From: Glaucostegus cemiculus
Lineage: Eukaryota
Direction of reading: 5' to 3'
DNA length: 64,000 bases
Assembly (NCBI GenBank): GCA_976551045.1
Contig: CDPCPM010000274.1
Location: 372,001-436,000, forward strand
Under the pieces are notes generated by a model. It made no database searches. It was not told the origin of the DNA and was given only the letters and a program-made list of their open reading frames with translations. The position numbers and the translations under genes were made by a program. The stretch's first letter is position 1. Each line of letters opens with the position of its first letter. Of the stretch, positions 1-64,000 are shown one piece after another.

Positions 1-720
1 ACAGACTTTAAAAAGGGATAAAAACCTCTTGACACCTTGAGTTTAAATAATTAATTTTGCAGTGACAATGTGGCGTGGTTCTGCTGCTAGATCAGATGAA
101 CTATTATATATTAATATACTCTCCGCCATTTTCACCTTTCAAAAATAGAAACATTAATTCTCTCTAAGTCTAATACAGGGCACCTAGTTTGCTAAGGTTC
201 GCAGCAAGTACGATGGAAAATTTGAAGTATCTGCAACCATATACAAGTCACGTGTTGTATATGATCGTCGGAAGTCAAATTTTCCTCAACATATCTTCTG
301 AGAATTAAATAGTTTGGTTTCCTTCACAGCCCTCTACCCCCACTCCACCCACATAATTCATAAAAATATCTTACCGACATCTTTGCGAATTGCTTCTATT
401 TGTTCCATTTCTAAAATCAAATATATCGCAATGGTTATAATACTTCCCATGGTAATTTAGTCATGAGATGTTTGAACTAAGACTGAGACGATTCATTGCG
501 TGGTACGTAGTTTGACTGCTACTTTCTGAGTGCTTTACGTGTGTTGGCAGGTAGTTGGCAGGAATACTTCACATGTATTGCAGAAAATAATTATTTGGAG
601 TTGTGCAAGTTGTGAGACATTATTTAGTTCCAACGCTGAACCAATATCGAGAGAGAATGATATACTCGTGTTTCTTTGACAAAGTATTTTCTCATCCACA
701 GAACTTTATGTTGAATCACA
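1..720 (+). pseudogene. Decayed class A GPCR (peptide-receptor-like), ECL1-TM7; 5' part probably outside window
   Basis: In-frame WRGSAARSDELLYINILSAIFTF* (71-148; ECL1/TM3), IILPMVI (~437-457; TM5), VCW (539-547; TM6), MIYSCFFDKVF (657-689; TM7/H8), in order, with stops and frameshifts. Confidence 0.55.
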
Positions 721-1639
721 ACACTAACGTTTTGCTCCAGGTCCTCTCAGCTAACTATAATCTTCCACTGGCAATTAAAATTAAAATTTCCTAGTTATGT
801 AAGTATGATTTAAGGAAATAAGGAAACCCATATTTCCTTCTGGAGAATTCAAATGACTGATGTTCGAAATTTTATCGCCGTAAGATATTACATTTCCCAT
901 GACCCCATAGACTCCTTCCATTTATGACCTGCCCAGAGAGTGATCTTTAGACTGCGTCGACTTTTTGCACAGAATCCTTCTGTCATTCTGTTTGATAGCG
1001 TGTTGTTATAGAAGCTAGCCTTTTAAAATTAACCAGGCAGAACCAGCGAAAAAAACTTTCCTACATCATATTGTTTAACTTTATTTCACATTATTTAGCT
1101 ACAACCGTGAGCTGAAGGCCATAATTACGATTGGTCGTTCCTATCAACCCGAGAGGGTGTTAAATCCGGTTTTTATACATAATAGACTGCATATTGATCA
1201 CTCCGGTTTACAATAATAAAAGGTGAGGAAAGTCTCTTCTTTAGTTCTTCAGGAATGCTATTGCAACTCTTTCCTGATAAAGCGATTTCCTCGTGACTGC
1301 CCGAACGATGCTATTGACGTAAAAGAAAAACAAACCTGTTCTAGTTTCACGTAACTTTTCTTCTGTGATTTAAATATAAGCAAATTCAGTTAGTATTTCC
1401 CCGAACTTGGCATGGCTCAAATAATCGCTTATCGCTTCCTTATAAGCAAAATCGTTCGGAATGTCGTAAAAATTAAATAATAAGGAATAAATCTTTCAAA
1501 CAAAGTCCGTGAGAATGCTTCGTTTGTGAAACGTTTTGCTGATATTTATTTTAACCATTGTGAATTTATGGAATTATTGGTGATGTATTGAAACGCAATC
1601 ACACTCATTTCCTTTCCTCGCCGTCCATTGTTCTTCAGT

Positions 1640-2700
1640 CCTGCTGTTGCTTATGGAATACATTACGCTTCGTAATTCTATCAGCAGGATGTACGACACA
1701 GTAGCATTAAACCCAATGTTTTCGCAAGAACAATCAGCAATCCTCAAATATATTCCATTTCATTATCACGTGCTATTTAGCTGTTTCTGTTGTGCTGAGG
1801 TATTGCCTTTGAAAAGTAAAATAAATTAACACATGTTAATGAAATTTCCTCGATTATTTACTGAAACATTGATCTAATTTTTATTCTGGTTTGTTTCCGG
1901 TCAGACGTGCTATTAAATCACAACTCTGCTGAACTAAATATTGCATTCATTCCTTTCACGCTACCAACGCCTTTCACGTTCCTCCCGTACTTCCAACCGT
2001 CGATCGCTAGTTTTCGACTACATTATTTTCTTTTGCCATAGAATTTCGAAACTTCTTGCAGTTAGAAAATATTATCGACTTCAAAATGTAATTTTTGGTT
2101 CTGTGCACGGGCTACCTGATCGCTGACGACCGAATCAAGATTTTTTCTGCCATGTCTTCATACTTTTCTTGTGATATCTTGTTTGATCATTTGTACACCT
2201 GTAGGTTAAGGTACCTCACTATATCTAACTTCCCAGATAGTTTTCTTTATATTAACGATTTTACGTTGTCTTTTGTATTGCCAATATTATTCCATTGTTG
2301 ATTATCCTTTGCATAGAAAACGTGACTGGCATTAATGTTAGAACCTGGAAAACGAAATGCAATACAAAAGTCATATTTTTAAACAAGTGGATCCATCTAA
2401 GATTAAAACACTCTTTTGATTCAAGAACATTGGATAACTTCCAGTACAAACAATGTACAAGGTAAAATTTCTTACCGTCGTCCTTCAAGTGAGCTATAAT
2501 GATATCAATAATTAATGTGATTAGAATTTTTACAATAATAGTGGTAGGAATCAAAATCAAAGACGTTATGGCAGTACACAATGCAAAAATATAAATAAAT
2601 ATAAATTAAATCATTATTGGAATACTACTCTAATAAGTGGAATAAACATCAATGTGTACCTGACTCTTTATCAACTGTAAACAGGAGGAAAACGGGTATA
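1640..2700 (+). pseudogene. Decayed class A GPCR (delta-group-like)
   Basis: LAVS..LPLK (~1777-1813; TM2), TVDR* with TAG at the Y position (1996-2010), IIPLLIILC (~2286-2312; TM5), weak TM7 near 2630-2680. Confidence 0.45.
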
Positions 2701-2759
2701 GAATTATTAAACGAAAGTAAATGTGGACTAAGTTATTTCAAGAGATCTACTCATAACGG

Positions 2760-3830
2760 AACCTATATGTAAATAGGAAAGAATCATGCGGTTTTCCCAA
2801 GTATGAAGCATTATGTCCAGTGGAATTGAATGTAAGACGAGCAGATAGTTTCTGCTGGTTTACTATTTTCACCAAAATCTGATAGTCAAGATCAATTATA
2901 AGAGCATAACCAGATATCACCTGAAGTTTATAAACGGTTCTTCGTATAAGCAAAATAGAAAGCCAAAATAAAGCGAGCATAGTTGTCCTTGAGTTAACAT
3001 TTAATTTTTAAAGTTTCATTTGATTGTGTTTATACTCACTTTGTTCCTTCAACCGTCTGTTGAGATCATCAACTTCTGTATCATCAAAAATATTATGTAT
3101 TTTGTCAGTTACATTATAAACAACCCATAGCTTCAATCATGTTGTTTTATTCCTTCACTTTTGGAACATTCCAGCATCAGAGATCACAATTGCAATTATA
3201 TTCCGCACAAAATCTTTCGTTTCATCTTCATCAATTCAGCTAAACAATGGAAAGCAAATAAAACTTCACATGCCGGAATCAAAAACCAAAAGTAAGAGCG
3301 GAAATCCTGCAATAACTCAACCTGTTAGGCAGAATCTGCGGAAGGTGCTTTCTCACTTTCTCAGTTACCACAGGTCCTCGACTTGAAACGTTGACAAGTT
3401 TCTCTTTACACAGAATATGCTTAACTGGGTGAGTACTTCAAACATTCCTGTTTGTGATTCTACTGAGCATGTGTACCACCCTCTGGGGAAAGATGTCAAT
3501 AAATTATTACTGTAATGGATGACTGAAGATGTGGCTTGGCCCTGCCATGAATGCAGTCAACATGTGTCCGGCAAAAGGCAATCAGTGGAAGGCTTTCAGA
3601 TGTGTGTTTATCTACGTGTGTGTAGAAATAAATGATACAAATATGGTTTCCACTCGTCTAAATCGATCAACTAATAAAGATGCACACTGTGGATTAAAAA
3701 ATATGCATTCGATCAAAATAAAGTGGCCAGTTCAGTTCATATGTCAGAATATACTGATATAAAATTTGAAAGGCTAACCATCGTGGGAAATAAAACGATA
3801 CATCTGTGTTGCACTTTGGACTGTGACTTC
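2760..3830 (-). pseudogene. Decayed P2Y1-like GPCR, interrupted by a repeat at ~3285-3455
   Basis: Minus strand: MYRFI..G*PF (TM1), IFFNPQCASLL (TM2), IIYFY..AFCR (ECL1/TM3), RVVH (end of TM3), then ORF 2747-2980 MLALFWLS..VYKLQVISG..LD (TM6-TM7). Confidence 0.5.
3285..3455. repeat. Short elasmobranch interspersed repeat with inverted ends (ctggaaatactcagc...gcagcatctg family), degenerate
   Basis: Diverged inverted arms. Similar arms recur at ~4395-4450, 5430-5520, 27712-27800, 30855-31060, 36383-36520, 53630-53770 and 55025-55100. Confidence 0.5.
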
Positions 3831-4029
3831 ATTTTTCTCACAATTTACAGACTATAATGTTTTATTTCACTAAAGAACTCTTGGGGGTGGGAGCAATGTT
3901 AACAAAAGACAATTCCCAGGGAAGAGTTCATGTCATAAGCCGGAAACTGATTCATAATTTAGTGGAAGTAACTGAAACGGAGAATTACATTGGATCTTAT
4001 TACCAACAGAATAATCAAAGATGTGGTGT

Positions 4030-4900
4030 ACGAAATAAAACTGAAAAAAATGAACAAAAAATAAATAGACCAAGCAACATCTGCAGTGACAGAAAAAAAA
4101 TCAATTTTTCGCGGCGACGTCATTTAATCAGAACAGGATAAAACAATTTGGATATGATTTATTTTACAAATGAAAGGTGGCGTGGAAGAAAATAACTAAT
4201 ATCTGTGATAAGGTGAAGGCGAAGAGAGACTGAGTGACAAAAATATTAGTGATGCTTGGTAAGAGGATCGTGAAGGCTTGTTTAAAGCAATTGATCTAAC
4301 TAGAGGAGATCTAAGCACATGACAGATGTTAGAACAGAGAACAGTGAAAACATGTGGAACAGTGAGATAATTAAAATGTATTTTTTTGCGAATCTGACAG
4401 AAAATAGAATGCTGGAAATACTTAATACATCAGAGTGCATCTGCGGAGCAAGTCCCTTCATCAGCTATGCCCAGTTCCGCAAGAAGGTCAAAGGCTGACC
4501 ATCTGAAATTGTTGAATTCATTTGCTCAGTCCTTGAGTTGTTGCACGCCTATTCATTGACTGATTTTTTCCTTCGACTTTCCGCCGGGCTTCATTGAAAC
4601 AGTTCAAGAAGCCGAAAATAGAGGTGAAAATACAGAATTTACAGGTAATTTGCAACTGAATGACTTGGTTGAAGGAAAGAGGAAACAATCCTCAAACTTT
4701 ATTTCAAGAAGCCCCTCTGATCCGGTCAAATTCGCCCTCTGTAGAGGGCTCAGCTTCGTCCTTATTCATCCCCATCACAAGGAACTGCATGCCCAATATG
4801 ATATTGAGCTCCTTTACTGATAACTTCGTCTTTGTGCCAGGTTTGTTGACGGAGAATCCTCACGGAAAGCTTGGTTAGTTTCTCCTCTCTTCTGACTTGC
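4030..4900 (-). mobile_element. Degenerate Penelope-like or other old retroelement fragment
   Basis: Resembles from memory the 3' region of shark Penelope-like repeats and carries the short inverted-arm motif. No ORF. Confidence 0.35.
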
Positions 4901-4934
4901 CTATCTACGTGGAATTCCACCACCACCTTCTAAC

Positions 4935-5360
4935 ACGAACTTTTGTCCTAAACCAACAATTATCACCAGCTTTAAGAAGACAAATACCATCCCAGTACCT
5001 AAGAAAAACAAGGTAACATGCCTTAAGGACTACCGCCCCGTGGCTCTGTCATCACGATCATGAAGAGCTTCGAGGGTCTGGTCATGGCATGCATTAATTC
5101 AAGGCTCCCAGTAAACCTCGACCCACTGAAATTCTCCTACCGCTGGAACAGGTGTACGGCGGACAGCATCTCCCTGGCCGTACACTCATCTCTGGAGCAT
5201 CCTGCAGTAAAGACGCTGACATTAGACTAGTGCTTACTGATATACATCTCTCCCTTCAATATGGCAATTCCAAGCAAACTCTTCTGCAAACCCGAGACGT
5301 TGTTTAGTCCTTGAACACCTCCCTTTGCAATTGTTTCTTTGACTTCCTGATCAACAGTCC
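4935..5360 (+). mobile_element. Rex1/Babar-type LINE reverse transcriptase fragment (defective)
   Basis: Translates across frameshifts to TIPVPKKNKVTCLKDYRPVAL..IMKSFEGLV..LDPLKFSYR.NR.TADSISL..SLEH..DFLI. Confidence 0.85.
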
Positions 5361-6199
5361 TCGGGAGGTGTGTTGTGATTTGTAAGAATAAGCAATGAGT
5401 TCCGGACCGATTAATTCTGGTGAAAGTTTACCGTCTGCTGCTTTAACTCTTCTTTTATCCTCTATTCACAGAAGCTCTCCGAGATCTGCTGAGAATTCCA
5501 GAGACTGCCGTACTTTGCATCGCAGAGTTTCAACATGTAGAGAATCAATGATGCATGTTCATCATGCTTCTCCAACTGAGTAATATTGCTATCATCGACC
5601 GTTGTTATCTACTGATCTCCTTGAAAATACGCCTTGATTCACTGTCCACAACCTCTCCGTATCCGTAAGTGTCTGTATTGCTCGAGAAATAGAAACTGGA
5701 CCCTATCCGTTCTGTCAAATCTGCTAAGTAATCACACACCTTTGAAACGTGCCTAATCTTCAATACATTCACTATCTGTCAGAATATATCAAATAATTGG
5801 CAATAATCGTTCAGAAAGATACTTTCTGAGACAGGAGTTGTTCTGACACAAGAGTTACCAACTATCAGGCTTTCTCATTGCCACTGGATAATTATCGTCC
5901 CGAATTCTATCTTAGGTGGTTAAAAAAAAAAGGAATTGGAAGATAAGCTATCCTGGAAAAAAAGTTGTTTTCAATTGTTTTATGTTTACATTAAAAAAAA
6001 ACATGCAAATAAATAAATTACCAAGTTCTTTTCTGCGTAGATTGTTCTCTGAAAAATAAACATTTCAATATAATAATTTTCGGCATGTTTCCAAAAACAT
6101 TTGGATACATTCACCTTTGCTTTTCTATTTCCGACTAGGTTCCATTTTTAAAAATTAATGAAGCCGGGAATGAAAAGTGGGATGAATGCAAAATGGACC

Positions 6200-7080
6200 A
6201 TGGATTCCTATTCCCTGCTGCATTGAGTATCAGTGCAAATTGTGACCAGAGATATTATTTGTTGACTGATCTGACGAGATGAATTGACCATACCACATAC
6301 TTGTGCAGATATTTTATTGACTCCAAAGTTTCTTCAACTGTTTTAATGTCTTTGTTGAATACTGGGATTAATTTCCTAAATGTGATATTTTTAATATGCA
6401 ATGACGCATGAATATATTGAGGATTATTTCCGTTTCTAAATGTCCACCGAATATCCGGCTGTAATTTTTCCTGGTTCTATGTGGAGTGACTCTCGAATAC
6501 GAAGCTCATCCGCAGTAGTTTTAAAGAAAGAAACATGTTCCCAAACTAGTCGATTAAAACTGTATTGAACTGAAATGGACAGGCGGCTTTCAGCATTAAA
6601 ATATGGCTACATAACTGCGTTCACTGTAAATTGAAAGAACTGCCAGTTAAGACAGAATAAAGGAAAACAATTCCCCGCTATGCCCACCGAGTACTATTTT
6701 ATCTAATTGAACCTGTTTCTGCTAAGTATTGTTGCTTGTTTCTTTACTTCGAGCTTTAAGCATTTCCAGATGCATTTTCTCACCAGAATCTTGCAAGTTT
6801 GCCTTCAATGTATCTATTTCTGAAAAATAAAAAAATAAAAAAAAACAACACATAAATGATTTATGTTCACTTCACGTACAAATTAACTGAATACTCCGCT
6901 TTCCTGACATAAATCGCGATGACCTGATATTTTTCACAACGTCTTTCTTTATGAACCCAGGTCAAAAAACGAATGTCTTGATGTTTTCTTTTGTCTTTTC
7001 GTCTTTTATTGTCTTTAATATGAGTTGCACTTTTTCTTGTGAAGTACGGTATTTCGCCTCCATGCATGCTGAATGTATGT
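6200..7080 (+). pseudogene. Decayed P2Y2/4/6-like GPCR
   Basis: GFLFPAALSISAN (TM1), CADILL (TM2), VHR/YPAVIFP (~6442-6472; TM3), RKKH (~6525), LSIVACFF (TM5), VRYFASMH (~7043-7066; TM7 RPLASxN-like). Confidence 0.55.
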
Positions 7081-7289
7081 ATGGAAGTGACAATAAAATT
7101 GATTGATTCAGACTCTGATTCGGATTCTGAATAAATAAAGCGTAGTGATCCGTTTCAACTGGTCGTATATGTTGAACAAAACATTAAAAATTTAGGACAG
7201 CTTTCCTTGAAAATTGACATTGGAACGGACTTGCAACCCCCCCCCCCCGCCTCTTAAACCCTCTTCTTCGTACTGTTCCCTGAACCTAT

Positions 7290-7850
7290 TTCCACATTTT
7301 TACCCATATGTCCACTGACCTTCTTTTCACATATTAGGATATGAATTGAAAATATATTTTGTTTTCTAAAGTTCATCTTTATAAGCCTATCCATGGACCG
7401 CGTCCTGCTGACTGTTCCTGGTGGTGTGGAACAATAAAACCATCTATACCAACGGAAATATGTCCTCAACTTACACAGACCTGTGTTAAGTGCAGTTTGC
7501 ATGAGTGCCAGATAATGCTTAAACTAATTCTCTGTTCTAATGGTGTACTGGACGTCGAATGCAAAGACACACAACAGTGTTGATGGGATTTCCAAAACCT
7601 ACAATGGGTACATTGTCTATCTGATCACATGAAGCTCAGAGGTGAGTATGATATTTTTACAACCATTTTCCCTGGAGATTTAAGTGAATAAACGATAATT
7701 TAAACCTTACACCTTTTACTCATGTGGTTGTTGTGTTCGATTATTTCATATCTTAATTTTCAACATTTAAAAGTGTATATTTAACTATCTGAATCAATTA
7801 ATATTTTAAAGTATGTGGCAGCTTAAACCTACTGTTAATCATCCCGGACT
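7290..7850 (+). pseudogene. Decayed class A GPCR, TM3-TM7
   Basis: In-frame CPLTFF..FIFISLSMDRVLLTVP (DR at 7396-7401), FSVLMVYWTS (TM4/ECL2), IFLQPFSLEI*VN (TM5), VVVVF (TM6). Confidence 0.5.
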
Positions 7851-8819
7851 TGAACGAAGTGAAATGTCAGTTACCGGCTTTGACCCTCTCAAAAGGTGTT
7901 CAATAGCAAGTCCTCGATGCTGGGCTGTTTGAATCCTATCTGCCCTTGAGTTAAGGCAATGCAATTCCTCGCCAGTTGCCTCCTAAGTGTGAAAGACCAG
8001 AATAATCGCCCCGTTTAATCTGCTCCCGGTAAATGTGGGCTGCTGGGACAGTAGGTATGTAGCAGAATACAACTCTAGTCAGCCTTAAAATAGTAACTTG
8101 AAGCTAATGTCATTTTTGTTGACTTATGTGCCATTTCACTTTGTCGGTGACTGTGAAAGACGACAGCCGACGTGAAAGAATAAACCGAAAGAACCAAATA
8201 AATTCGCTGGACAAAGAACATATCAAGTTATCACTTGAGTCGGAAAGAGTTTTACGACTGAACTGTAATGTTAGGAAATGACAGCAGTGAAATTGAGAGA
8301 CTATTTCAGCTGCAGGTATCTCGAAAACTGAGAGACAACTCAATACTACTTGAGCAAAGCAGACTTACGTTTAAATGTTATGACCTCTGCATAAAACGAA
8401 TAAATAACGTGCCAATTCTGTGGAAATTCTGAGTGGAAGCGTCCGATGGGAGTTTAATCGGGTTGGGCTGTTTTCCATCTCCAACACGCTATTATCATTG
8501 AATCAACATTATTGGACAAACGGTCATGGCAACGGTCCAACGAGTTCTAACTTTGAGCACGCTGACTGTTCGACTGAACTGTTTGGGGCGACGAGAATGT
8601 GAAGGAATAATGGAGAAATTGCGGGAGTGATCAATTGTTGGAGTAATTCTAACGAAATGCCTCATCTTTAATTTATGGAAATAACTACAATATTAATTGT
8701 TTAGATTGAACCTCCAACATTTTTTCTAAATAGCAGTTCTTCATTTGAGGCCAGTTTACAGAGTGAAAATGAAAAGGACGTAGAATTATTATGTTCCAGA
8801 AAATAAGAAATAACCAGAA

Positions 8820-9650
8820 TTGCTCTCAGGTGTCTTTTATGGGATGCCAAATTCTCCCAAGATAACGACATGCAGAATATATCTTCAGACTGGCGCCCTG
8901 TACTTTTCGCACTGTTTTCATTGCCAGCTTAATTACATTATAATAAAGAATGCTGGAAAACTGTGAATCTATATCCATTACAGTATTAAACTGTGTGCAT
9001 CTTGTCGTGAAGAATTTCAACTGTGGAATTATGGGGGAAATTATCTGCCGGTGTTTACCTTTATCTTTTAGAAGAAGTTGCCTCACTGTTAGGGAAAAAA
9101 AGAACAATTTAATTGCAAAAATATTGTCAAAACAATGCAATACTTCTCAATAATTATATCCAGAATTACTTCAATATCTGCATTTAGTATGAGGAGTGAA
9201 GAAATGATTTGCACACCGGCACACTGGAACGTCATTTCAAAACCTTGTTTGTTGAAGGATTTTAGCTCGGTAAATACAAGTTGGGTTGTGAGTCATGCAT
9301 GACTGACAGCATGAAAATAAATATTTTTACCTGGGCAACAAAGATATAATGACCAAAAATTGGCGGATGGGGTGTCATGTGCGATCACTCAACGTTTGCG
9401 GTACTGGGCAGTCCCGGCCACTCAGCGATCCAGATAGCCAATATTTTTTTTCAGTTAAGTTACATCTCTAATTGGGAAGAAGCTGGTAGCAGGGCGAAAT
9501 CCTTGCCTTCCAATAGTCACTACCGCAGTCTGCAGCTCCTGAGTTAGATACCGTAGATGGTGAGGGTGAAGAGGCGACAAATTAATTTGCCCATGTAATT
9601 GCTGCCCAACTTGCAGCTGACACGTAGGTTGGTCCCAGGCGATCAGCTGG
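8820..9650 (+). pseudogene. Possible decayed GPR139/GPR142-like GPCR
   Basis: IYLQ/LA (TM2), VFTFIF..C..KYCQNNA (compare shark GPR139-like WFTVTFTFDRFVAICCQKLKTKYCTEKTA), LQL near 9610. Many frameshifts. Confidence 0.3.
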
Positions 9651-9949
9651 TCATTAACACCCCCGGAAAATTGGAAATGCCGCTGTCATTTATCAGAAGT
9701 GGGATAGACTCACTCAACAGCCCAAAAAGGGACACGACCGCGATACATCGCCAAGGACCCTTAACAAAGGCATACACAAACGAAATCTTATGCTCCCTGT
9801 AAGTTTACCAGTCCATGTCTCTGTGAAGTCTCCTACCACCACCATTTGGCGCTGTTTCATACATCCATTTTTTTCCCTTCTGCAGCTTTCATCTCTCTCG
9901 GTCAAACTGTGATAATCGCTCAAGCGCCTTTCAGGTGCTGTGTTTTCTG

Positions 9950-10300
9950 ACGTTAGTTTCTACATTTAGAAGTATTATCTTTTCATTAGCATTCGTAATA
10001 TTTCAACCTTGATATCATGGTCTTTTAGCTTAATTCCACTAAGCAGTTTGGAATGCCTTAATGCAATCTGAAACCATGCATGACCCTGCATGGTTTCAGA
10101 TTAATTGTAACCAGTGTCTAATGCCCTACATTTCACTGCCAGTGCACACTAAGCATCTCATTAGATATCTGTCATAGACATTGCTTCATGAAAAATTCAA
10201 GTAAATATTTTGGATTGAACTTTTAGCATCAACAGCAGTGATATTGATTTCCAAACAGATGTAAACTACTGAATTTATTGTATATAGTGGGAATATCGTT
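9950..10300 (+). pseudogene. Possible decayed GPCR fragment, TM1-TM3
   Basis: YISLPVH (TM2 end, ~10127-10147), IFWIELLASTAVILIS (TM3-like). Confidence 0.3.
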
Positions 10301-10529
10301 ATTCAGTTCGAAATATCACAAACAGTGGTTACGTTTTAGAGCCACTGATCCTAATTTTCTCAAAGGCCGTGCGAAAGCGCATGTTCTTGGGCAAATCTTC
10401 CAGTCAGTTGCAGGAAAAAATGTGTGTCTTGGATTGACCATTTATCAAACATGCAGCTAGGAATTTAGAGGTCGTGTTCCTGGCTCCAAATTCTACAGAA
10501 GGTTTTTGGTTTCAGCAGGTTGAGTCCTG

Positions 10530-11330
10530 CTTATGAGAACGACAGGTGAAAGTGAAGAAAGCGGGCAGAGTTTTAAGGTGCAGAGGATGAAGACGAAGGA
10601 GAAAAGGAATTTCAGTATGATAATCGAATGTAACCAGTGGCCTCAATAAAGATACTTTCATTGCTAAAGTGGGAAACTAAAAGTATAAAAAGATTTTGTA
10701 GATATATTGAATAATTTTCAATTGTGCCTGTTCACTTGGGAACTAAAAGCGAAGCTGATTGACTAGCAGTTTAATATAAATGTGACTAAAGGCGAGCGGC
10801 TCAATTGCAGCAGCAAGAGGAGTGCGATCAGAAAACTAATTCTGAAGGAACTGAGAACAAATGTTGCAGTACCAGGCGAGTTAGCTTGCTTTCAAATGAC
10901 GTGGAGTGTGAAACATGCTTTCTTAAAACGCAAGATGGGCATGGAAAACCGTAAGCCCTGTTCCTTTCTATTTTAAGGAGCTCTTCTGCGAGCTCTTTAC
11001 CCTATACCACCTGCCACTCCTCTGTCGTATACCTCGACTATTGACAGGATTTTACAACTACAATTTGAGAATATATATTTGCAGCAGTACGAGGAAAATT
11101 CAAGATTAAATTCGATACAGATAAAATACCATGCAAATTAAATTACACCATGATATGACGTCTGCGATATTATTGTTCAATCTTTTGATAAATCACTGAC
11201 GTCGTATCGTGGTGAGCTATTTGTTACTGCTATCACATATAATTTCAATATATTATTGATTGCTTACTGGTATCTTGAAGAAGGATTTTGAATTCTGTAT
11301 GATATAATCGTAAAAGAATTATTTGTATAC
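10530..11330 (-). pseudogene. Decayed chemoattractant-receptor-like GPCR
   Basis: TTSVIY../IADV (TM2), CCKYIFS (TM3 start), FSMPILRF (TM4), FRISFLIALLL (TM5), NSARFL (TM7-like). Confidence 0.4.
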
Positions 11331-11339
11331 ATATGTATT

Positions 11340-11730
11340 TGCAGTTGGTTGTGCTTGTAGTCCACTATACTGGCAGCCTTGAATTTAAACACCACATGTT
11401 ATCGCAGACATTCGCAGGTGCAGACACACACTCATACACAGAATTTAGCTGTAGACAACGATCAACGCCTTATCGTTCATTCTGGCCGTTATCATATTGA
11501 AACATAAATAGTTAGGCATTGAAGTAATTTTACGTATAAGCTCTTGTCATTAAATACATGAATCAGTTCAGAGAAATATAACTTCAGCTCCAATAATTGT
11601 TGTGCTGATTGTGCTGTTCCTCCTCGACGTCAGCTCCGCAATTCAAGAAATAATTAACCCTAGCCTTAATTGACTCTCTGTGCTTAATTCCAGTTTCGCC
11701 AAGCCACTCGAATGTAGTTTGCAATAGCTT
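11340..11730 (+). pseudogene. Decayed GPCR, TM4-TM7
   Basis: A single frame 11461-11727 reads LSFILAVIIL (TM5), IIVVLIVLFLL (TM6), LSVLNSSFAKP (TM7), with three internal stops. Confidence 0.45.
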
Positions 11731-12980: not shown

Positions 12981-12984
12981 ATTG

Positions 12985-13620: not shown

Positions 13621-13900
13621 CCTTGACGGATGCACTAAGTCATCTCACCGAGGCTTCTTCAGCAACAATCCATGCCTACTGCCTGAAAATTCAAGCTGGA
13701 CAGGAGAACACCATCTAGAAGTTCATTAACAAATTAAAACAAATTCTGTCATGGAAAACAATCCAATTCCTTCACAACTGATGGCTCAAAACCACGAAAC
13801 TCCACGATGAAAAGTAAATTTAGGAAATTATCCTCACAAAAATTTCACGATGCTGGAAGGTGACTCTCTTTTTGTGTGGACAGTGAATGCCGAGGCCACT

Positions 13901-14690: not shown

Positions 14691-14699
14691 AGCAAATGT

Positions 14700-15090: not shown

Positions 15091-15169
15091 TTAATTTATT
15101 TGCCCTCACCACTAATGAAAAAATATATGCCGCCATCAATGCCATTTGTGAAATATTCTTTAAATATTT

Positions 15170-51614: not shown

Positions 51615-51646
<32 letters not shown>

Positions 51647-51649
51647 CGT

Positions 51650-52410: not shown

Positions 52411-52549
52411 GAAGAAGCTGCAATGAAAGTTATCCCGATGACTCACAAGCCACACATACTGCGTCGCATATTGAAACAGCATGTAATTATATGCTGACCA
52501 GTTGAAATGGTTATCTGTTCAGAGTTACATCCCGAGATCACGCGACCTG

Positions 52550-53290
52550 ATTAGTGCAATGTGCCCATCTCATTACCTCTTGTGCCGTCTGCGTGCTCTG
52601 CTTAAAGTTCTGATCAAAGTTAAACCTCGTGATGTGTTTCCCAAGTAGGGCTGGTGGAAGTCGGTAATGGTAATTCCAAGAAATTATAAGTATTGTTGTT
52701 GATTGACGTTGGTAACGGCGGTTTCCTGGCAAGTGCGTGAAAGGAAATACCACTTGCTACTTTGAAGCCCATGCCTTCTTTTTTTTTATTCTTGATACTT
52801 CGGCACGCATGTTCATTTTCTTGGTCCTGTGAACTACTTTGATCAATCATTAACAGTCATCAGTGAACCTCCTCGATTCTGACATTAAGATAAATGGTGA
52901 ATTAGCTGGAAGTGATGAGCCAAGGACTTTGCCTTAGGAACGCCTGCAACCATGCACTTGAGGAAGAGATATTGATAAAAAATGCGAAGAGTAAGCAGTG
53001 ATCAGAGCTATGTTCAGTTGATTCTTTTTGGTTTTTACGTCTTTTGTACTTGTTAATGTCAAGGGAAATCAATCATGCGTTAATTCTGGAATTCAGCAAT
53101 ATCGTATTTTTCTTGCGTGAATGCCGTGATGGATTTCAATACTGAGTGGTCTTGAAGAGGCCATCCTGGAGGAACAGCTACATACTGGGAGTTCTTTTGA
53201 CGACGGTACAAATTACTTTGGGGAAGTTTTGGCTGATCGTCAAACTGAAACATTTCTCGTTGACCCGCTGTTATTGAAGAATGCATTATT
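52550..53290 (+). pseudogene. Decayed class A GPCR
   Basis: AVCVLCL (TM1), FG, SLTVIS (TM3), LFGF (TM5), FLA*MP (TM6 W to TGA), LVDPLL (TM7). Confidence 0.5.
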
Positions 53291-53479
53291 TCCATTGGTT
53301 ATTTTGAATTGTGTACGAAATCAAACATAAAATGGTTTATATTGCTCACCTTGTGATTTATCTATCAGCTTTTTCTCTACAAAGCAAAGTTATTTAATTG
53401 TTTTTTAATCATTCGTTCATTGAGCCATCTGAGATAAAGAATTAAAATAAAAACAGGAAAAGCCTGCGATACTCCGAAG

Positions 53480-54000
53480 GATAATCTTGATATTGAACTT
53501 GCCACAAATATTCCCTTTGTTCACCCTGTATCTATAGGCAACCTACAACTCTGTAACTTATTTTCTTATTTTGCTTATTCATAATAAACTCTTCCTATTC
53601 TTATTTTCTTACTACGACACACACACACATAAGAACTGGAAAGTGAGAAAACACGTTGAAAAATTTTAATTTGCACCGAGTCGTTAACATGAAACATCAG
53701 CTCTGTTTCTCTTTCCATAGATATACCTGACTTTCACAGATTCTCCAGTACTTCAGCATTTTCTGTTTTTGCTTCACCTGTTAATTAGTTGTGATTTTTG
53801 CGGGTTTCTTCTTTGCTTTTCAGATTGTGGTTGATACTGCACTTACAGCGTAAAGCAGGACGATTGGGACCGTATTTGCTGTATGTTTTACTGCAGCCGG
53901 TTTTTACTAATATTAATATTTATTCTTCCAATAAGAAAATATTGAAGTTTAGAGCAGATTAGATTAGTCTAAGGCTTGCTGAATGGATATTATTCGCGGC
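53480..54000 (+). pseudogene. Decayed PAR/P2Y-like GPCR, split by a short repeat
   Basis: ILNL (TM2), LCNLFSYFAY (TM3), FAGFFF (TM5), VFAVCFT (TM6). Confidence 0.45.
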
Positions 54001-54349
54001 GAGAACATTTTCAACGCTTTCGATAATTTTTGTTCAACAAAAAGTAATGTGCAAAGGTCATTTTGGAGGGAAACATCCTTAAGAAGCTTAAGTATTCGTA
54101 AGCACTTAAATAATCAAATCATTAAAGGATATGGGTCAAGTGCTGGCAAATTGGTGTAGTATGGATGAGGTCCCCTGATGGTCGTATTTACGTAGTATAC
54201 CGAAGTGCGTTTCCCAGCTATAAGGCTAGGATTTGATTATCCTCTGAAAATAGAAATACTGCTTACCCACTGCTTTCAGAGCCTTTTCCAGTTCGTCATA
54301 TTCTGAAAATTAAAAATACTCATGTTATTTTGCCAACTGATATTAATAA

Positions 54350-54830
54350 CATTTTGGATCCAAATATTACGCATCGACATTACAAATTAAACTAAGGGAA
54401 TAATATCCTTGAGATGTGTTCCTTGAGTAGTACATTGGCTCTCCGGTATGTTATACACTAATTTTCCAGAAAACAATAGACGCAAGATAAAGCGACATTT
54501 ATCAGAAGCAAAGCTGAAAACCAATCGATCTTTTTAATGCTGCATCTTTATGCATTTCCTGTGGAATTAACCCGACATTCCATTTCTTTCTAAACAATTT
54601 TGCCATTGAATCCGTGGAGAACTTCCAGCAACTTCCTATTCGGTTGTCGTTTCCTTTGCAACATCCGTCACTCCATGTTGAGATTGTTTTTCCCTCCGGT
54701 GATCTCACCAGTACGTCCAATGGCAAAACTGACCTGAGGGATGTAATGAATTGTACGTCATCCTCAGCATTACAACTGCCAGCGGTCGCATAGACCCTGT
54801 TCTTTTGAATTATGTTATGCCCAGCTGTAA
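54350..54830 (+). pseudogene. Decayed GPCR, TM3-TM7
   Basis: YAST (TM3), YAFPV (TM5), SVVVSFA..TP (TM6), IDPVL (54790-54804; TM7). Confidence 0.45.
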
Positions 54831-55207
54831 GTACACAGATTCCCTGCATGTCCCGTGCAAAATCGTGCGTGAGGCTTTCGAAATGTCTTGGATGCCCATT
54901 GTCAACCTTTGACTGGCCTTATGCGTAAGGGTAAAAGTACCTCATTTGAATGAAAAGAGGTAAAAATCAAGCATTATCAGCAATATTTTTGTCTTGCAGG
55001 CACAATACACTTCAGGTGTTGGAATCTGGAGCAACAGTCTGCTAGAAGAACTCAGCGGCTCAAGGAGCATCTGTGAGGAGAAAAGGAGAGTGAATGTTTA
55101 CAGATTTCGATCTTAGTAAACTACTGAAGAAAGGTGAATCTATAGCCAAGCAACATACTAGCAAAAGAATTAGAGACATTGGATGTGGTCTCAGTGACTT
55201 GGGAAAG

Positions 55208-55530
55208 GGGCGGCACAGAGATGCAGGTAGTGGATCTGCTGCCTCACAGCTCCAACGACCTGGATCCAATCTAGTCCAATGCTGGCTGTGCAGAGCGTCC
55301 ACGTTCTCACTGTGCCCACGGATCTTTGCCCCAGGTTTCTAGTGCATCCCAAAAACGTGCAGGCTGATAGCTTAACTGGCCGCTTTTAGTGCTTGAGTGA
55401 ATGTTACAATCTGGGGAGGTGATGAAGATTGATGAGAACTTGAGGCGAATACAATGGAATAAATGTGGAATCACTGGAACTAACTGCGTGACGAACGGTG
55501 CTTGGATAGAGGGGTCTGCTTCCGTATTCA
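55208..55530 (+). mobile_element. Degenerate tRNA-derived SINE (HE1-like)
   Basis: gggcggcacag..gctgcctcacagctcca..gacctggatccaatc head followed by a V-domain-like body. Confidence 0.8.
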
Positions 55531-57269
55531 ATAAAAGTACCTGATAAATAGAATAACTAAATTTCTAAATATATTTGTAGGCTAGTAAATAATAAAGAGC
55601 CGCACGAAAGCGCTAACATGCATCAAATTCTGGGTGGGAATTGTGGTCCTGTTAATTGTGACATTGTGTCGAAAAGACTAATTTGACTTCGGAGCAGAGA
55701 CTAAGTCATTAACAGCACATTTAATCGCTGAAGAAAATAGACCCCAAATATCTGGATAAATGAAAGTGTAAAACAGAGTGCACAGATGGGTGTGCGAAAA
55801 GACAGGAGGAAGAGCAGAAAGAAGTATAGAAATAGACAAACTTACGGATAGATAGAAAAATGGAGGTTGGGGAGATAGAGATAGAGATAGAGGGAGAGAT
55901 GGGAGGCAGCACAACGTGATGTAAACATCCAGTAAGCGGTCTGTCTGTGGCGTGAAGGCTTTCTGATCAAATGACTTCTCATTCAACCATTCTTTGAGAA
56001 TATACTAATTAAATATGATTGATAAACATTACCTTTTCTCCTAACTGGTTGACCTGTGGATATTATTTAGAAAATTCAGGGTGAAAATACTTCCGCAATG
56101 TACATAAAGAACATGCATGCGTGATATTTAACGCTGTATGTCTCTTGCTACTATATATTTTAGTACTTGTGAAACCAAAGAAAATTATTTTCTTTTCCAA
56201 TTATCCTAATCTGCTGATAGTTTGAGCAGAGCAGTGTCTTTATTCATTTATCTTTCTGCACGTATATCACTGCAAGCACTCGGATTGAATTTGTTTCTTC
56301 AACTTTTTTCACTTTCTAAAGAATAATCATTTCATTTGAAACAAAGGAGCTGCGTTTTCCATAATGTGACAGAGCAGCATGGGGTAATGTGTCCCTGTAA
56401 ATTGTAAGAAAGTTAACAAGTGGTTGATTAAAACATACACTTTAATAGCCGCGTATTGCGTGATTTCTGGCAATTTCATTTCTGAATCATTAGGAATGGA
56501 TATGATTATAGTGAAGTGCTCGAGGGACACGAGATCCTGCATATCAAATGTCTGCTCCCAAAAAAATTGCCATAACATCCAGGGCGAAGGAGACGCAGCA
56601 AATGGTCAGATGCGGACTCAGGTACCGAACGCTTCCAGTGCCAGGGAATGGCCGAAAGCATTACGCCAACAAGGGTGCCCCTCTGACCCGAAACTTAGTG
56701 CTCATCTGTGGATCTGTGGAATCTGTTCATCTTTCCCGACAAACAGCAGTCTTTACGTAAAATCGCTACACATTCCCAAAGTATTTACTCCATACCTAGC
56801 TGTGTGGCAATAAGACTAACAGTTCATTGCTGCGTAATTACCAGCAGATGGCAAGTGTGTACAGTACAGCCAGAGTTTATCTCTGTTTAGGCGGGTACAA
56901 ACAGGGAAATGTTTGTGTGACGCTCTGAAGAATATCGCTTACGGCGTACCGGACTATTAATCCTCCAACAGAATGTTTTTTTTTGTCTGCAGTAATTAAC
57001 ACTTTGCATGGAGCCTAATTCGCCTTTTCTTTCAGTTATTTGATTCACAATTCTTATCGGTTTCTGTACTATGGACTGGTGAATTAGAAAGAGCATACGA
57101 ATAGCTTTGAAAGTCTGTGAAGAAGCACGTTAGGTAAAATTCATGCTTTGATCCAAAGAGTTGAACAAATGCCAATTTCACAACTTTTCGTTATATTCTC
57201 AGCCCTCTCTCTGGATTTCTTTGAAATCGATTGATATGAATCGAAAAGTGCACAAAGTTGAAATCAGGA

Positions 57270-58310
57270 CTAGTTTAGCACTGGTTCCATGCTGCTAACC
57301 ATTGACTCTTACTTTAGTACTCTTCAAGTTACTTCCTAATAGATATGGACTACGAAAAATAAGTGCAGGGCAGAGCACTCTCTCGGAAGTCATCAGACCA
57401 AACATTTTCATGTTTATTTTGAGCACCCGTTTAAGGATCTACAATTGATTCGCATTTTTACTCTACCATAGCAAGGCAATGAAATAGATACGACGTTAGG
57501 CATTAAGGGATGGAATACACATCTTCGCCCCTGAACTGATCCATAATTTAATAAGTTGATGGGTGATCAGATTGCACTATCAATTCTGCACTCCTGTCTA
57601 TCCACGGTAACTTTTCAACACAGCATCCTTCCCTTTTCCTGTTCGAATGTCCATTCACATATACTGTAGACAAAGTGTTGTTTTCATAGGTTTTGGAATG
57701 ACACCAGATTGTTTTCACTTTTCCACGACTCAGTGATGTTGATGTTTAACGAACGATAGTACCAGTGTCCTGTAAACAGTGCAGGTGAAATATTAAGTGT
57801 GATACATCAATATCTACTACGATACCAAATCGTCTACAAAACTTAATTTTCAGGTGTAAGATACATTTGCTCACCAGTGTCTCCAATTGTTTGTCTCAAG
57901 GTTTCTAATTCTAATCAGAAAAGTGGGAAATAACAATTTAAGTTTCAAGTGGGTTTCAAGTGAAAGTGAGATACTTAAGGATTGTATAACTAATTTGTAA
58001 CAAAAACTAGGAGCTATTTTCAGTCGACCAGATTAATTTACTTGTCAGCGCCATTGACTTGTATTGGATTGCAGACTGCTGGGTAAAAACTCTGTGCAAC
58101 CAAGCGAAGTAAGCTTCAATATATGAATTGGTGTTTCTGCGGTATTTACCATTTGTCTTTTGAGACAGTGCTCTCTCTATTAGAAAGACAAAAAATACCA
58201 GTCAGAAATGAATGCTGACTCCAACATACATTGAAAGAGGTGCAACAATGATTCTATTTTATGTCTTACTTATTACTTAAAAATTCTCTTATTTCCGTGT
58301 TTGGAAGAAA
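57270..58310 (+). pseudogene. Decayed HCAR/P2Y-like GPCR
   Basis: PNIFMF (TM2), VSAVFTICLL (TM6), ILCLTYY (TM7); probable repeat at ~57500-57640. Confidence 0.45.
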
Positions 58311-58575
58311 CCCGTTTTGTAACTGCATTGTTTTCACTACCTGAATTTTACATTTGCTCAATGATTCAACGTAGACCACAATCCTCAAACGGAGTTTGTT
58401 TATGGACCATCAATATCCTCTTCATGGTTAAAGTAATGGAGATAAAATAAAGAAAAATGTTCAATGATTCGAATAGTGCATTTTGCATGAGATTCTTTGT
58501 GGAATTCTAAATTCAACATAATCATGCTATATACCGTGCAATTTTTGTTATTTTACGGGCTGCTGTTCCGAAATG

Positions 58576-59065
58576 TGTCATCATGTTGATTAAAGAGCAA
58601 GCTCACAGAGAACCAAGTGTGGCACGAAGGTACAAGACTGGAGTCAGGATACTTCCTCAGGACTGGACACAGGCAGCAACTGGAAGGAATCTTGCCTCGG
58701 AGATCTGAGTAGTAATCCCAACACAGTCAGGATACTTCCTCAGGACTGGACACAGGCAGCAACTGGAAGGAATCTTGCCTCGGAGATCTGAGTAGTAATC
58801 CCAACACAACCTGAATCTTCAAGCAGGACTAGAGAACGCAGGACTGCTCTAGAGTTGACCACTCTAAGCAGCAAGGAGCCAAAATATACCCGAAGGTTGA
58901 CCAATCCTCTGACCACTAGTGCTAGAGAAACCCAGGTACTTATGCTAGGCTCCTGATGGGGCTCAGGTGTGTGTCATTATGCAATCAGTCCAGCATGGAA
59001 TCCATGTGCAGTACAACGAGGCATCTAAGGAACCAAATCAATGGCCAGTACTCAGAATCATGACA
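58576..59065. mobile_element. Solo LTR (TG...CA) with 5-bp target-site duplication and an internal 83-bp tandem duplication
   Basis: Starts tgtcat and ends atgaca; flanks aaatg/agatg; identical 83-bp units begin at 58642 and 58725. Confidence 0.75.
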
Positions 59066-60433
59066 AGATGGGCCACGGCACAGTCTTTGGACGACCTTAT
59101 TTTTTGAAGGCGTTATTGTGCCATGGTGTAAGGGGGTGAGGGGGGGGGGGGTGGGGGGAGAAACAACTCACAACAATCTGAAGAACATAAACGCTGGTAA
59201 AAATTGCAGAGCACAAACTGTCAGAAGGAAATTGGGATGTGGAATTGGCCGCACATGTCCTTTATAATCCCTTACCTGCTTTGTCTAAATCTGGACAAAA
59301 TAAACGATTCGTTATCAGTCACATTTCAACAAATTGCACGTAACTTAATATTTGAACAACATTTTATCTTCTTGTCTATGAATAGAAATGCACGTGAACT
59401 GACGAAACGTGATGTCTAGAAATGGCTTAGTGCCGTACCAAACTGAAATCTGCCGACTAGGAGTGAAGTCTCATTGCTAGCATCTTCCTCACAATAGGCT
59501 GTTGGCAATCGACTAGCAACTTTTGTGAGGAGTGAAGGAGGTTGAGATTATGGTATATGGAGACCCAAGAGATTACAGATGCGCGAAACCTGGAGCCTTT
59601 TACTTTAAGTGGGAAATGGGAAAATCCCGTGTGGAAGATTCATACATTCAGGCAGAATGGGTAATGTCATTGAATACCCTATTGCTTGCACAAAGATATT
59701 TTATTTAACTGAATGTTTAAAATCCCCTCCAATGCTTGTTCGACTTAACGGACTTGAACAATAATGGACACAGCATTGTCGGAAAGACTTTAGAGCTTAA
59801 CTACAACATTCTTAATAAGTGACAGAACCCCAAATAACATTAAGTAAAGCTTACATTAACCATATGACAGGAAATGATATAAAGGCACAAGTAGCCTTAG
59901 TTTAGGTATAGTTTCATTTTGCTTTCTAAAAATGGTGCCATTTCACGCATTGAAATGTCCTCAAAAAATAAACTGCTTTAAACGCTTAGTTGGTCCTATA
60001 TAATCTGTGAATTTATATTTGTTTAGAACTTCACCTAATGTTGTTCTGAGCATTTACAAACAGTTTGAGGGAGAGTAAACAGATTTCAATTAACTGAATG
60101 AAATACACAACCGGTTGATTTCAGATCTGGAGTAAAACCCCTTTGAAATGCGGATATGCTGATTGAGAACAAATTGAGAACTGTTCGAATAAATTTCAAG
60201 AATAAAACGTTGAGATAAACATTTGAGAAATATGCGGTATGATTGTTTAAGAAAGGTAACAGAGAATGGATTGTGCAATCTACTTACAAGTCAATAGCCG
60301 GAATGACGTTCAAGACAGAAAATTGGCAAGGTCGTGGTTGATTGAACACTCTACTCGGTCCGCTTTGCTTCTATTTATTCGCATATGCTTGCGAATTTGG
60401 AAATAACCCGATGAAAATGCGACTTTAATAACG

Positions 60434-60562
60434 NNNNNNNNNNNNNNNNNNNNNNNNNNNNNNNNNNNNNNNNNNNNNNNNNNNNNNNNNNNNNNNNNNN
60501 NNNNNNNNNNNNNNNNNNNNNNNNNNNNNNNNNNNNNNNNNNNNNNNNNNNNNNNNNNNNNN
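60434..60562. other. Assembly gap (N run)
   Basis: Ns in the sequence. Confidence 1.
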
Positions 60563-61379
60563 TATTCCTTTACCTGTTTGTTTCTGTCTCAATTTTTCTT
60601 CTGTTAATATGAATTGCGAATTGAAATAATCAATCTCTGAAGTATCTCGTGGCAAAATAAATATGAAACACATTATAATATAAGTTGATTTTCCTTTCCG
60701 ATGATTCACTGTTTTGCAAATTAGATACACTCCGAAAACATTTCGTTAACATTGTTTAATTATAAACGATCTACGAAAACTTACCTGTATCCTTAAGATT
60801 TCGAGCGCAGTCGCCAATTCCTGCAAAGTAAAAGGAAAACTACTGAACTCTCATGCATTAAAACATTGTAGCAACCTCAAGTTCTCATTCTTTCTTTTTT
60901 TGCGATGGTTACTGAATTAATCCTCAAATATTCTGCAACTGAAGAAGTAACCTACATGTCGAAAGGGTATTGCGCAGAATTACTTGTCAACTGCTTTGCT
61001 GAACAATGCAGGAGTGATATTTCCGAATGCACACTGACAACGCAACCTGCACTCGATTTATTTAATGTGATTCAATTCCAAACACGAGGGTTTTAAAGAA
61101 ACAGTTGCTTTGTATTCGGAAGGGCAAAGAAAAATTAAGTTAAGTAGGAAAGAATTGTGTCTGCGGTTCATAACAGACGCAATAGAAATACTCAATTCAA
61201 TGCACAATGGTAATTACGATAATATTTCCAGAACTATTATTTTAATGGTGTTGTCTTTTATATTTCTTATGTTTACCTTTTAATTCGTCAGTTTTTTCCT
61301 CTGATGAAAGAAGTAAGTTCAACCAAGTGAGTAATGGGGAAGACGTTGAAACTTTTCCTGAATTTATTCACAAGAGTCG

Positions 61380-63108: not shown

Positions 63109-63370
63109 TACGAGTGCTGTACCATCGAAACTTTCAATTTTCTTAAAGATTTTTCTCACTCCTTCAATCACTCGCTGCTCATCCTCCCGGCTACGTCCGA
63201 GTCTCTAACTCCCAAGTCTAACAACTTACCTACACAGTTCCTGGTCCTGGCTCTAGACTCGCACCCAGCCCATGCTGCCTGCCTCTGACTTCCGTAAAAC
63301 GATTTTCCAGTCCCCGAATTCAGCCTCATACTTAACTCATTCTCCTACTTAAAAATAGTGCTGGAATTTA
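62740..63370 (+). pseudogene. Possible decayed GPCR
   Basis: RWSSG (ECL1), CCLI (TM4), FLV...PAH (TM6), FSYL/NSA (TM7). A hairpin replaces part of TM3. Confidence 0.35.
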
Positions 63371-63736
63371 AACAGTAAAGAATACCCCAGCTTAAACCCA
63401 GCTCCATCACGCATAGTTTATTGTGGGCACGTTCCTGTATGTTTGTGTTTTTTTATTATTGTACTGTTACTGATAAATTACAAAAACAATACCTTCACTT
63501 AACTGGCTCAATTAATAACAGTGGGCACGCACACTCGGAGTGATACGTGGAACTCCATAAACAGATCGAGAATTTGACTGAGGTCTTCACGACAGTAAAG
63601 ATAATAACTATTATTGTTGCTCGGAGATTTAGGAAATCTGTTGAAGGAGCTTGAATTACACCTTGATTGGAGAAACAAGCCTCGGAAGAATTCTCTTTCT
63701 CCCGTGTTTATTTTTACCCTCGTGGTATTGTCTAGT

Positions 63737-63740
63737 TCTC

Positions 63741-63781
<41 letters not shown>

Positions 63782-63900
63782 TTATCTATCTATCTATCTA
63801 TCTATCTATTTATCTATCTATCAGAGATAGATAGATAGAGATATCTATCTTTCTCTATCTCCTAGTTGTATATTCTCTCTCTCTCTCTCTCACACACACA
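63737..63900. repeat. Compound (CT)n/(ATCT)n/(GATA)n/(CA)n microsatellite
   Basis: Direct observation. Other microsatellites: (TA)n at 51618-51646 and (CA)n at 63078-63106. Confidence 0.95.
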
Positions 63901-64000
63901 GAAAATTAATCACAAGCACACACGTACATCGATGTATATACGTAAATGTAGGACGTGTCCATATTTTAGCTCTGCACAGAATAAACCCACATTCAATTAT

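Follow-up and report, generated by a model that had tools for sequence, protein, structure and literature searches.

Germline-hypomethylated domains are a known kind of genomic feature. In apes, where sperm methylation is negatively correlated with the observed/expected (o/e) ratio of CpG, a preprint describes CHEDs, large non-satellite domains of low germline methylation that preserve CpG, carry duplicated genes, adjoin centromeric satellites and hold recent duplications (PMC13308097). Lamprey germ cells carry large partially methylated domains (PMDs; PMC10912607), and in the mouse oocyte, where methylation tracks transcription units, inactive regions form similarly broad domains of low or intermediate methylation (PMC5066131). 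Here we describe a CpG-retaining block of about 510 kb in the cartilaginous fish Glaucostegus cemiculus, the middle of which is the window that we analyzed in most detail (64,000 nt; positions 372,001-436,000 of contig CDPCPM010000274.1, hereafter C274, in an assembly of 2.85 Gb). Like the CHEDs, it is a large non-satellite domain that preserves CpG and contains duplicated genes, and it would share their low germline methylation. Unlike them, it is old, shows low internal similarity, lies between ordinary genes, namely nurim and a CpG-depleted spliced gene, and has an edge that is sharp to 300 bp. With the PMDs and the oocyte domains it would have in common a broad, intermediate or low level of germline methylation, and it differs from the PMDs in that its state is read from CpG decay alone. 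Our literature search, with most subscription papers and supplements outside it, found no paper on CpG-retaining domains or on the genes described below in sharks or rays; thus, while the kind of domain is known, we found no report of such a compartment in cartilaginous fishes.

The window has a GC content of 37.8% and contains 1675 CpG dinucleotides versus 2276 expected (o/e 0.74, z -12.6), with TpG and CpA in excess (1.23 and 1.16). The original prediction, made from the letters of the window, had described an AT-rich domain without CpG depletion, at about the random expectation or above it, on the basis of hand counts that we reproduce exactly: 16 CpG in 1201-1560 and 14 in 41461-41820 (o/e 1.45 and 1.20), set against two poorer segments with 5 and 6 (Table 1). 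Both rich samples are high outliers among the 360-bp tiles of the window, whose median o/e is 0.74 (n=174) and of which only 10 of 174 reach at least 1.2. The absence of depletion therefore does not hold, because of the o/e value and the TpG/CpA excess; the CpG excess is nevertheless real when set against the rest of the genome. As background we used 51 loci of 10 kb from other contigs, picked by contig number without weighting by length; the 46 with 1500 or more non-repeat bases were retained (L009, L098, L113, L114 and L120 were dropped). In the unique sequence of the AT-rich loci (<42% GC), o/e was 0.09-0.26 in 27 of 29, the other two having 0.60 and 0.66; pooled, these loci gave 0.20 at 38.1% GC as against 0.75 at 37.7% GC for the block, a nearly fourfold difference, so that neither window nor block is at background. 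Ordinary AT-rich DNA of this genome is as depleted as that of mammals (o/e about 0.17). Values of at least 0.6 were found in 7 of the 46 background loci, and the high-CpG state is therefore a minority state and not unique to the block. The block is also repeat-poor, with a fraction of 0.22 of its bases matching other fetched loci versus 0.50 elsewhere. Among the background loci, L001 is mostly long interspersed element (LINE), and four of those dropped (L009, L098, L113 and L114) are fully repetitive and AT-rich (35-36% GC), with CpG o/e of 0.61-0.73, and are likely satellite arrays.

To delimit the block we analyzed C274 from 90 to 650 kb in full. All 5-kb bins from 95 to 605 kb have o/e values of 0.51-0.90, with GC of at most 0.455, and the next two bins fall to 0.21 and 0.19. 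At the right edge (604.0 kb) successive 500-bp intervals contain 17 and then 1, 0, 2 and 3 CpG, and beyond it lies the CpG-depleted spliced gene, on the minus strand. This edge is straddled by a 315-bp inverted duplicate, 85% identical and with only two copies in the genome, whose inner arm contains 8 CpG; the outer arm has retained none of the 8 at the same sites, 7 of which now read TG or CA. The switch takes place within about 300 bp. The inverted duplicate lies exactly on the right edge, which possibly marks an ancient fold-back or rearrangement junction. At its left end the block passes into the nurim promoter (~92.9 kb); an exon of nurim is 94% identical to a sawfish protein, which, along with the CR1- and SINE-type repeats, is in keeping with a ray-like cartilaginous fish. 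In the region of the right neighbor, a zinc-knuckle match accompanies apparently spliced 3' untranslated exons (L069:3-410, minus strand, C274 ~610 kb).

Dispersed repeats allowed CpG decay to be compared at matched age inside and outside the block. For the short interspersed element (SINE) family seeded by a copy in the window, leaving out the seed itself, matches shorter than 100 bp and copies more than 20% diverged, CpG columns now read TG or CA at 51 of 262 positions inside the block (16 copies, non-CpG divergence 0.075), 149 of 394 in the C274 flanks (25 copies, 0.081) and 181 of 364 on other contigs (24 copies, 0.095); the per-copy median loss is 0.18 inside (n=16) versus 0.42 outside (n=49; p=5e-4). 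Likewise, in the reverse transcriptase (RT) region of CR1 elements 19 of 59 CpG columns were lost inside; for equally diverged copies on other contigs the figure is 63 of 101. The GpC controls of this region are equal (41/162, 0.25, and 73/307, 0.24). C-to-T or G-to-A changes at CpG sites amount to 0.101 inside and 0.217 outside, and those at other C/G sites to 0.048 and 0.057, giving approximate CpG to non-CpG rate ratios of 2.2 and 4.1 respectively. At matched age, CpG decay is thus specifically reduced to about half inside the block, with other substitutions unchanged, but is not absent. CR1 copies that are about 25% diverged are present inside the block as well. The original prediction had proposed that the region was long unmethylated in the germ line: the halved decay of retroposons and the duplicate at the edge lend indirect support to long hypomethylation, but "unmethylated" is too strong, because CpG sites inside still mutate about 2.2 times as fast as other C/G sites.

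Strand skew is an accepted mark of germline transcription. Over 378 kb of unique DNA in the block, TA skew is -0.005 and GC skew +0.003, and the median skew per 10 kb is 0.043 in the block versus 0.074 in 32 low-CpG loci (p=1e-4); in the right flank TA skew reaches up to +0.13. Strand counts of repeats in the block are 8:7 and 9:9 for CR1 and 6:12 for the SINE. On these figures, germline transcription of the block looks low. A germline-transcribed small-RNA cluster, one of the two chromatin states that had been suggested for the region, is accordingly disfavored by the sequence: clusters of PIWI-interacting RNAs, which give rise to abundant 24-32-nt RNA in the germ line, carry a strand-biased signature or dense, oriented transposons, whereas here skew is near zero, CR1 orientation is balanced and repeats are fewer than in the background.

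The block itself is not the dead sequence for which it had been taken. Splice-donor words are over-represented in it, and a frame-blind scan for splice sites recovered, for lengths of 12-60 nt, 100 candidate exons from the minus strand, among them 31 of 27 nt, 29 of 36 nt and 11 of 24 nt, as against 32 from the plus strand (one of 27 nt, none of 36 nt), with no 27/36-nt size peak in control loci; 69 of the 71 minus-strand candidates of 24, 27 or 36 nt are open in phase 1. A trained micro-exon scanner found 245 candidates in the block, 223 of them with a length that is a multiple of 3 (112 of 27 nt, 66 of 36 nt and 2 of 21 nt in all); some circularity enters its stop-codon comparison (1 vs 125 and 107 of 223), since it was trained on, and rewards, exons open in phase 1. 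In the frame-blind set, stops interrupt two exons, at 191.6 and 189.8 kb. The encoded peptides are of coiled-coil type, with a high content of K, L and E. The micro-exons form at least two transcription units beside nurim. Unit A spans ~597 to 546 kb; its last exon is an intact SPRY (B30.2) exon in phase 1 that is 74% identical to Narcine P0007, the next-best match in the genome being 37%; its micro-exons follow the same order as in the Narcine protein, the isoforms of which differ by whole exons of 18 and 27 nt. Unit A encodes a coiled coil with B30.2 but without RING/B-box or immunoglobulin (Ig) domains; its Narcine counterpart is labeled "zinc-binding protein A33-like". Unit B runs from ~534 to 102 kb with 214 candidates, of which 195 are multiples of 3 (~1870 codons), and includes the window. 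Between 206,766 and 109,351, 31 of its exons reach at least 62% identity to Narcine P0019, and 30 of these keep the order of that protein (four exons tie on a single repeat); in total 54 exons match P0019 versus 8-15 in shuffles, and Scyliorhinus proteins match too. We found no SPRY exon for unit B. A possible 6-nt micro-exon with strong splice sites lies near its 3' end (L032:8001-8006, minus strand, C274 ~98.0 kb).

Exon modules recur in unit B at 381-370, 350-349, 338-336, 178-170 and 147-146 kb of C274, which suggests ancient internal duplication of multi-exon blocks. The 33 candidates in the window, of which 32 are multiples of 3 and in phase 1 (Table 1), match Narcine and Scyliorhinus proteins as repeated modules and not collinearly, and may or may not share a transcript with the collinear exons; of 7998 candidates that were scored (987-2815 residues), none at E<=1e-5 was a longer database protein spanning them, which is weak evidence. 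The matching database proteins are Narcine bancroftii XP_069775384-90, the A33-like proteins named above, and XP_069775425.1 ("golgin subfamily A member 6-like protein 22", X7), together with Scyliorhinus XP_072329362.1 and XP_038671246.1; unit A and the 3' part of unit B follow them collinearly, and as modeled they are far shorter than the exon array of the block. Thus, an apparently empty 0.5-Mb stretch beside nurim holds under-annotated giant micro-exon genes, whose in-frame exons have counterparts in RefSeq proteins of both fishes.

Their closest described relatives in architecture are chicken BG and the butyrophilins (PMC5938342, PMC8813856, PMC12841164), in which the coiled coil is likewise built from many small split-codon exons; butyrophilins share with unit A a terminal B30.2 domain, and the block may have neighbors of the type found in the major histocompatibility complex (MHC), as both families do. 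Unlike in BG, the exons of the block are mostly of 27 or 36 nt and not of 21 nt (the heptad tail of 21-nt exons typical of BG has as counterparts 2 of 245 candidates), and they number ~220 over 500 kb versus 27-37. IgV and transmembrane exons, which BG and butyrophilins have, were not found. Our Pfam scans covered 515 stop-free segments (221 + 150 + 144), from which short or locus-edge exons may escape; in these there was no Ig match (221 window segments and 168 minus-strand and 126 plus-strand block segments) and no developmental regulator. A scan for a transmembrane exon with a donor site had no match, and Narcine P0016 gave SPRY only. A TRIM-type N-terminus was likewise not found, as RING/B-box had no Pfam match in the block or in P0016, P0018 and P0019. 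An array of antigen-receptor V or J segments was considered and rejected: J motifs were absent, and weak sites resembling recombination signal sequences numbered 15 in 520 kb versus 9 in 230 kb of control sequence. One isolated IgV-like motif occurs at L050:4127 on the plus strand (C274:314,127), at a frequency expected by chance (20 in 520 kb versus 10 in 230 kb). Besides nurim, C274 carries a TRIM cluster and a PBC-domain gene, which, together with nurim, may mark the MHC region.

CpG retention extends to other clusters. The best paralog of the SPRY exon lies at C125:1,713,900-1,714,391 with 27- and 36-nt exons upstream, where a second giant 27/36-nt micro-exon locus, SPRY-terminated and on the plus strand, occupies ~1.25-1.71 Mb (L132-L142, L092-L094). 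Here, o/e of unique DNA is 0.55-0.79 upstream of the SPRY exon and 0.17-0.49 downstream, the drop falling ~1.5 kb past the exon; high CpG extends to 50 kb, ~1.2 Mb beyond any clear micro-exon array. Two further regions behave alike: C196 from 2.2 to 3.9 Mb (L161-L166, L128; 0.66-0.84), with matches to 7tm_1, the rhodopsin-family G-protein-coupled receptors (GPCRs), in 2 of 7 loci, and C160 from 0.6 to 1.2 Mb (L167-L169, L118; 0.61-0.70), with Ig matches. Together with C125 from 50 to 1715 kb they span 0.53-0.84. Locus L002 on C3 (0.66) also contains 7tm_1 fragments, several high-CpG loci (L008, L116 and much of C125) gave no gene match, and a locus in the TRIM cluster of C172 reaches only 0.42. 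Retention specific to micro-exon genes is ruled out by the stretch of C125 without a clear array and by the GPCR and Ig clusters: it is the property of a compartment and not of one gene. The retaining region of C125 also contains fragments of a retroviral-type integrase and env (L156:3664-5540, minus strand, ~704-705 kb).

What we observe, then, is a position-dependent and CpG-specific reduction of decay over old gene arrays, bounded by neighboring genes. Very probably, germline methylation of the block is no more than partial. As to the cause, we regard it as moderately probable that this partial methylation stems from repressive chromatin covering clusters that are silent in germ cells, and that transcription-coupled methylation of the neighbors sets the edges. 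The tandem clusters would be transcriptionally quiet in germ cells and lie within broad repressive chromatin, which the de novo methyltransferases would fill only partly. Germline-transcribed neighbors would recruit full methylation over their bodies, guided by histone H3 lysine 36 (H3K36) methylation as in mouse oocytes, and so give sharp edges. Lower deamination of 5-methylcytosine, sustained over tens to hundreds of millions of years, could then hold o/e at ~0.75 without raising GC. Several points weigh against this account. The chromatin cause is an inference, and part of the TG/CA "loss" may be subfamily variation, which makes the rate ratios approximate. The 3' seed of CR1, with only 4 CpG columns, shows no difference (13/22 versus 32/54), and the left edge is gradual, being fused with the nurim promoter. 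Germline silence is not sufficient alone, because ordinary AT-rich DNA is depleted (the 27 of 29 loci above), and something must single out these clusters from it. Among published methylomes, elephant shark liver is pervasively methylated, with a wider spread than mouse or zebrafish (PMC5437953), and mouse sperm is almost evenly methylated (PMC5066131).

Expression in the germ line, a view close to the original prediction, could instead be the cause, with giant micro-exon genes active in testis, as is the testis-specific micro-exon gene TSBP1 of the mammalian MHC, forming an open, H3K4-methylated domain that excludes methylation and possibly yields small RNA. The block is indeed nearly coextensive with the micro-exon units, the CpG drop on C125 follows closely on the SPRY exon, and H3K4 methylation shields DNA from methylation in germ cells (PMC5066131); yet both the strand skew and the CR1 orientation bias that such transcription should leave are absent, the signature also covers ~1.2 Mb of C125 without a clear array and the GPCR and Ig clusters, and decay is halved and not abolished, so that we hold this explanation to be rather unlikely. 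A methylation valley had also been put forward for this region; in its Polycomb form, with H3K27me3 keeping the domain unmethylated in every tissue as happens near developmental regulators, it is a little less probable still. Valleys or canyons are, like the block, repeat-poor, CpG-retaining and bounded, here by a sharp edge; they are, however, far smaller than 510 kb, and the block has no CpG island or GC-rich core and no developmental regulator among the scanned segments. Where near-zero methylation would be expected, its CpG transitions, a proxy for methylation, run at ~2.2 times baseline with TpG/CpA at ~1.2. With neither transcription skew nor CR1 orientation bias, a valley or a piRNA cluster therefore fits poorly.

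What we measured are outcomes of mutation, and GpC o/e is slightly higher in the block (1.08 vs 0.96), as would suit normal methylation combined with a local difference in deamination or repair, such as slower deamination imposed by chromatin or more effective repair of G:T mismatches, or with GC-biased conversion that regenerates CpG. This is improbable in view of a GC content that is not raised, the equal loss of GpC in CR1 inside and outside, the similar transitions at non-CpG C/G sites and a switch completed within ~300 bp. Least probable of all, and in our judgment very improbable, is that the block is young or foreign DNA (a duplication, viral or horizontally acquired sequence, or contamination) that has yet to lose its CpG. 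Young duplicated regions are CpG-rich in apes (PMC13308097), and the right edge coincides with the inverted duplication, a possible rearrangement junction. Against youth stand unique introns with little internal similarity, exons that are in the same order as in Narcine proteins and have relatives in those of Scyliorhinus, an orthology that contradicts a recent origin, the diverged host CR1 copies inside, and the contiguity of the block with nurim.

Other features of the window are listed with the micro-exons in Table 1. Self-BLAST revealed no tandem or dispersed DNA array, only pairs of CR1 and two short direct duplicates in introns (45805-45876 and 47567-47638, 97% identical; 51043-51091 and 51363-51411, 94%), and there were no Rfam matches to structured RNA in the window. 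The LTR-like repeat, previously called a solo long terminal repeat (LTR), is 90-92% identical to copies in other loci and therefore likely arrived CpG-poor. The CpG-poor patch contains an 89-codon open stretch at 43427-43693 on the plus strand.

Table 1. Coordinates of features of the block and the window (positions without a contig name are window positions)
Feature	Coordinates	Strand	Remarks
CpG-retaining, AT-rich, repeat-poor block, ~510 kb	C274 ~94,000-604,000	.	window 1..64000 is its middle
Inverted duplicate arms	C274 inner 603,722-604,035; outer 604,343-604,644 (L068:3722-4644)	inverted	straddle right edge
Terminal SPRY exon, unit A	C274:546,030-546,548 (L063:6030-6548)	-	Pfam SPRY E=5e-14
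Micro-exon array, middle of unit B	375..61300	-	related modules in Narcine P0019, Scyliorhinus P0018/P0020
24-nt micro-exon	61277..61300	-	score 27.3
36-nt micro-exon	60785..60820	-	score 29.9
27-nt micro-exon	60574..60600	-	score 21.8
15-nt micro-exon	59276..59290	-	score 25.5
27-nt micro-exon	58150..58176	-	score 20.5
36-nt micro-exon	57875..57910	-	score 22.8
36-nt micro-exon	54267..54302	-	score 24.0
27-nt micro-exon	53350..53376	-	score 24.9
18-nt micro-exon	50693..50710	-	score 25.2
27-nt micro-exon	47852..47878	-	score 21.9
Weaker micro-exon candidates	47092-47118; 40936-40953	-	scores 15.1; 16.3
36-nt micro-exon	39013..39048	-	score 23.0
Further micro-exon candidates	37620-37643; 35661-35687; 32280-32306	-	scores 18.8; 16.0; 16.2
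36-nt micro-exon	31636..31671	-	score 26.9
18-nt micro-exon	30594..30611	-	score 21.7
27-nt micro-exon	26075-26101	-	score 18.3
36-nt micro-exon	25603-25638	-	score 18.1
27-nt micro-exon	24031..24057	-	score 21.1
36-nt micro-exon	22723..22758	-	score 29.6
27-nt micro-exon candidate	21120-21146	-	score 16.5
36-nt micro-exon	18327..18362	-	score 27.3
27-nt micro-exon	16722..16748	-	score 27.0
27-nt micro-exon	9059..9085	-	7/8 residues identical to repeat of Scyliorhinus P0018/P0020
Weak 18-nt micro-exon candidate	8369-8386	-	
36-nt micro-exon	6784..6819	-	score 35.2; 7/11 residues identical to Narcine P0019
36-nt micro-exon	3040..3075	-	score 20.6
15-nt micro-exon candidate	2660-2674	-	score 16.6
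27-nt micro-exon	1336..1362	-	score 20.0; within hand-counted sample 1201-1560
36-nt micro-exon	375..410	-	8/11 residues identical to Scyliorhinus P0020
SINE-type repeat	23176..23445	+	26 CpG, o/e 1.49; seed of decay test
Decayed CR1-type LINE fragment	27946..29750	+	o/e 0.50
Younger CR1-type LINE fragment (RVT_1)	32673..34272	-	o/e 0.48
CpG-poor patch	43040..43700	.	5 CpG; one match in genome, no Pfam match
Young interspersed repeat (LTR-like)	58576..59066	.	6 CpG, o/e 0.21

Beyond this locus, it is conceivable, though we put it forward only tentatively, that cartilaginous fishes keep a separate compartment of megabase blocks over tandem clusters of immune and sensory genes, among them the giant micro-exon coiled-coil/B30.2 genes. 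Germline methylation would have been kept off these blocks for hundreds of millions of years, and their edges would be sharp to a few hundred bases. Shark and ray methylomes have been called pervasively methylated on the basis of somatic tissue; the compartment offers a directly testable prediction, and skate methylomes exist (PMC10115646). If true, it would represent a retained mosaic element in an otherwise vertebrate-type methylome that can be read from sequence, and would show the layout of the germline methylome before bony fishes. It would also mean that CpG mutability is halved exactly where gene families expand, and would affect work on mutation rates and dating in these clusters.

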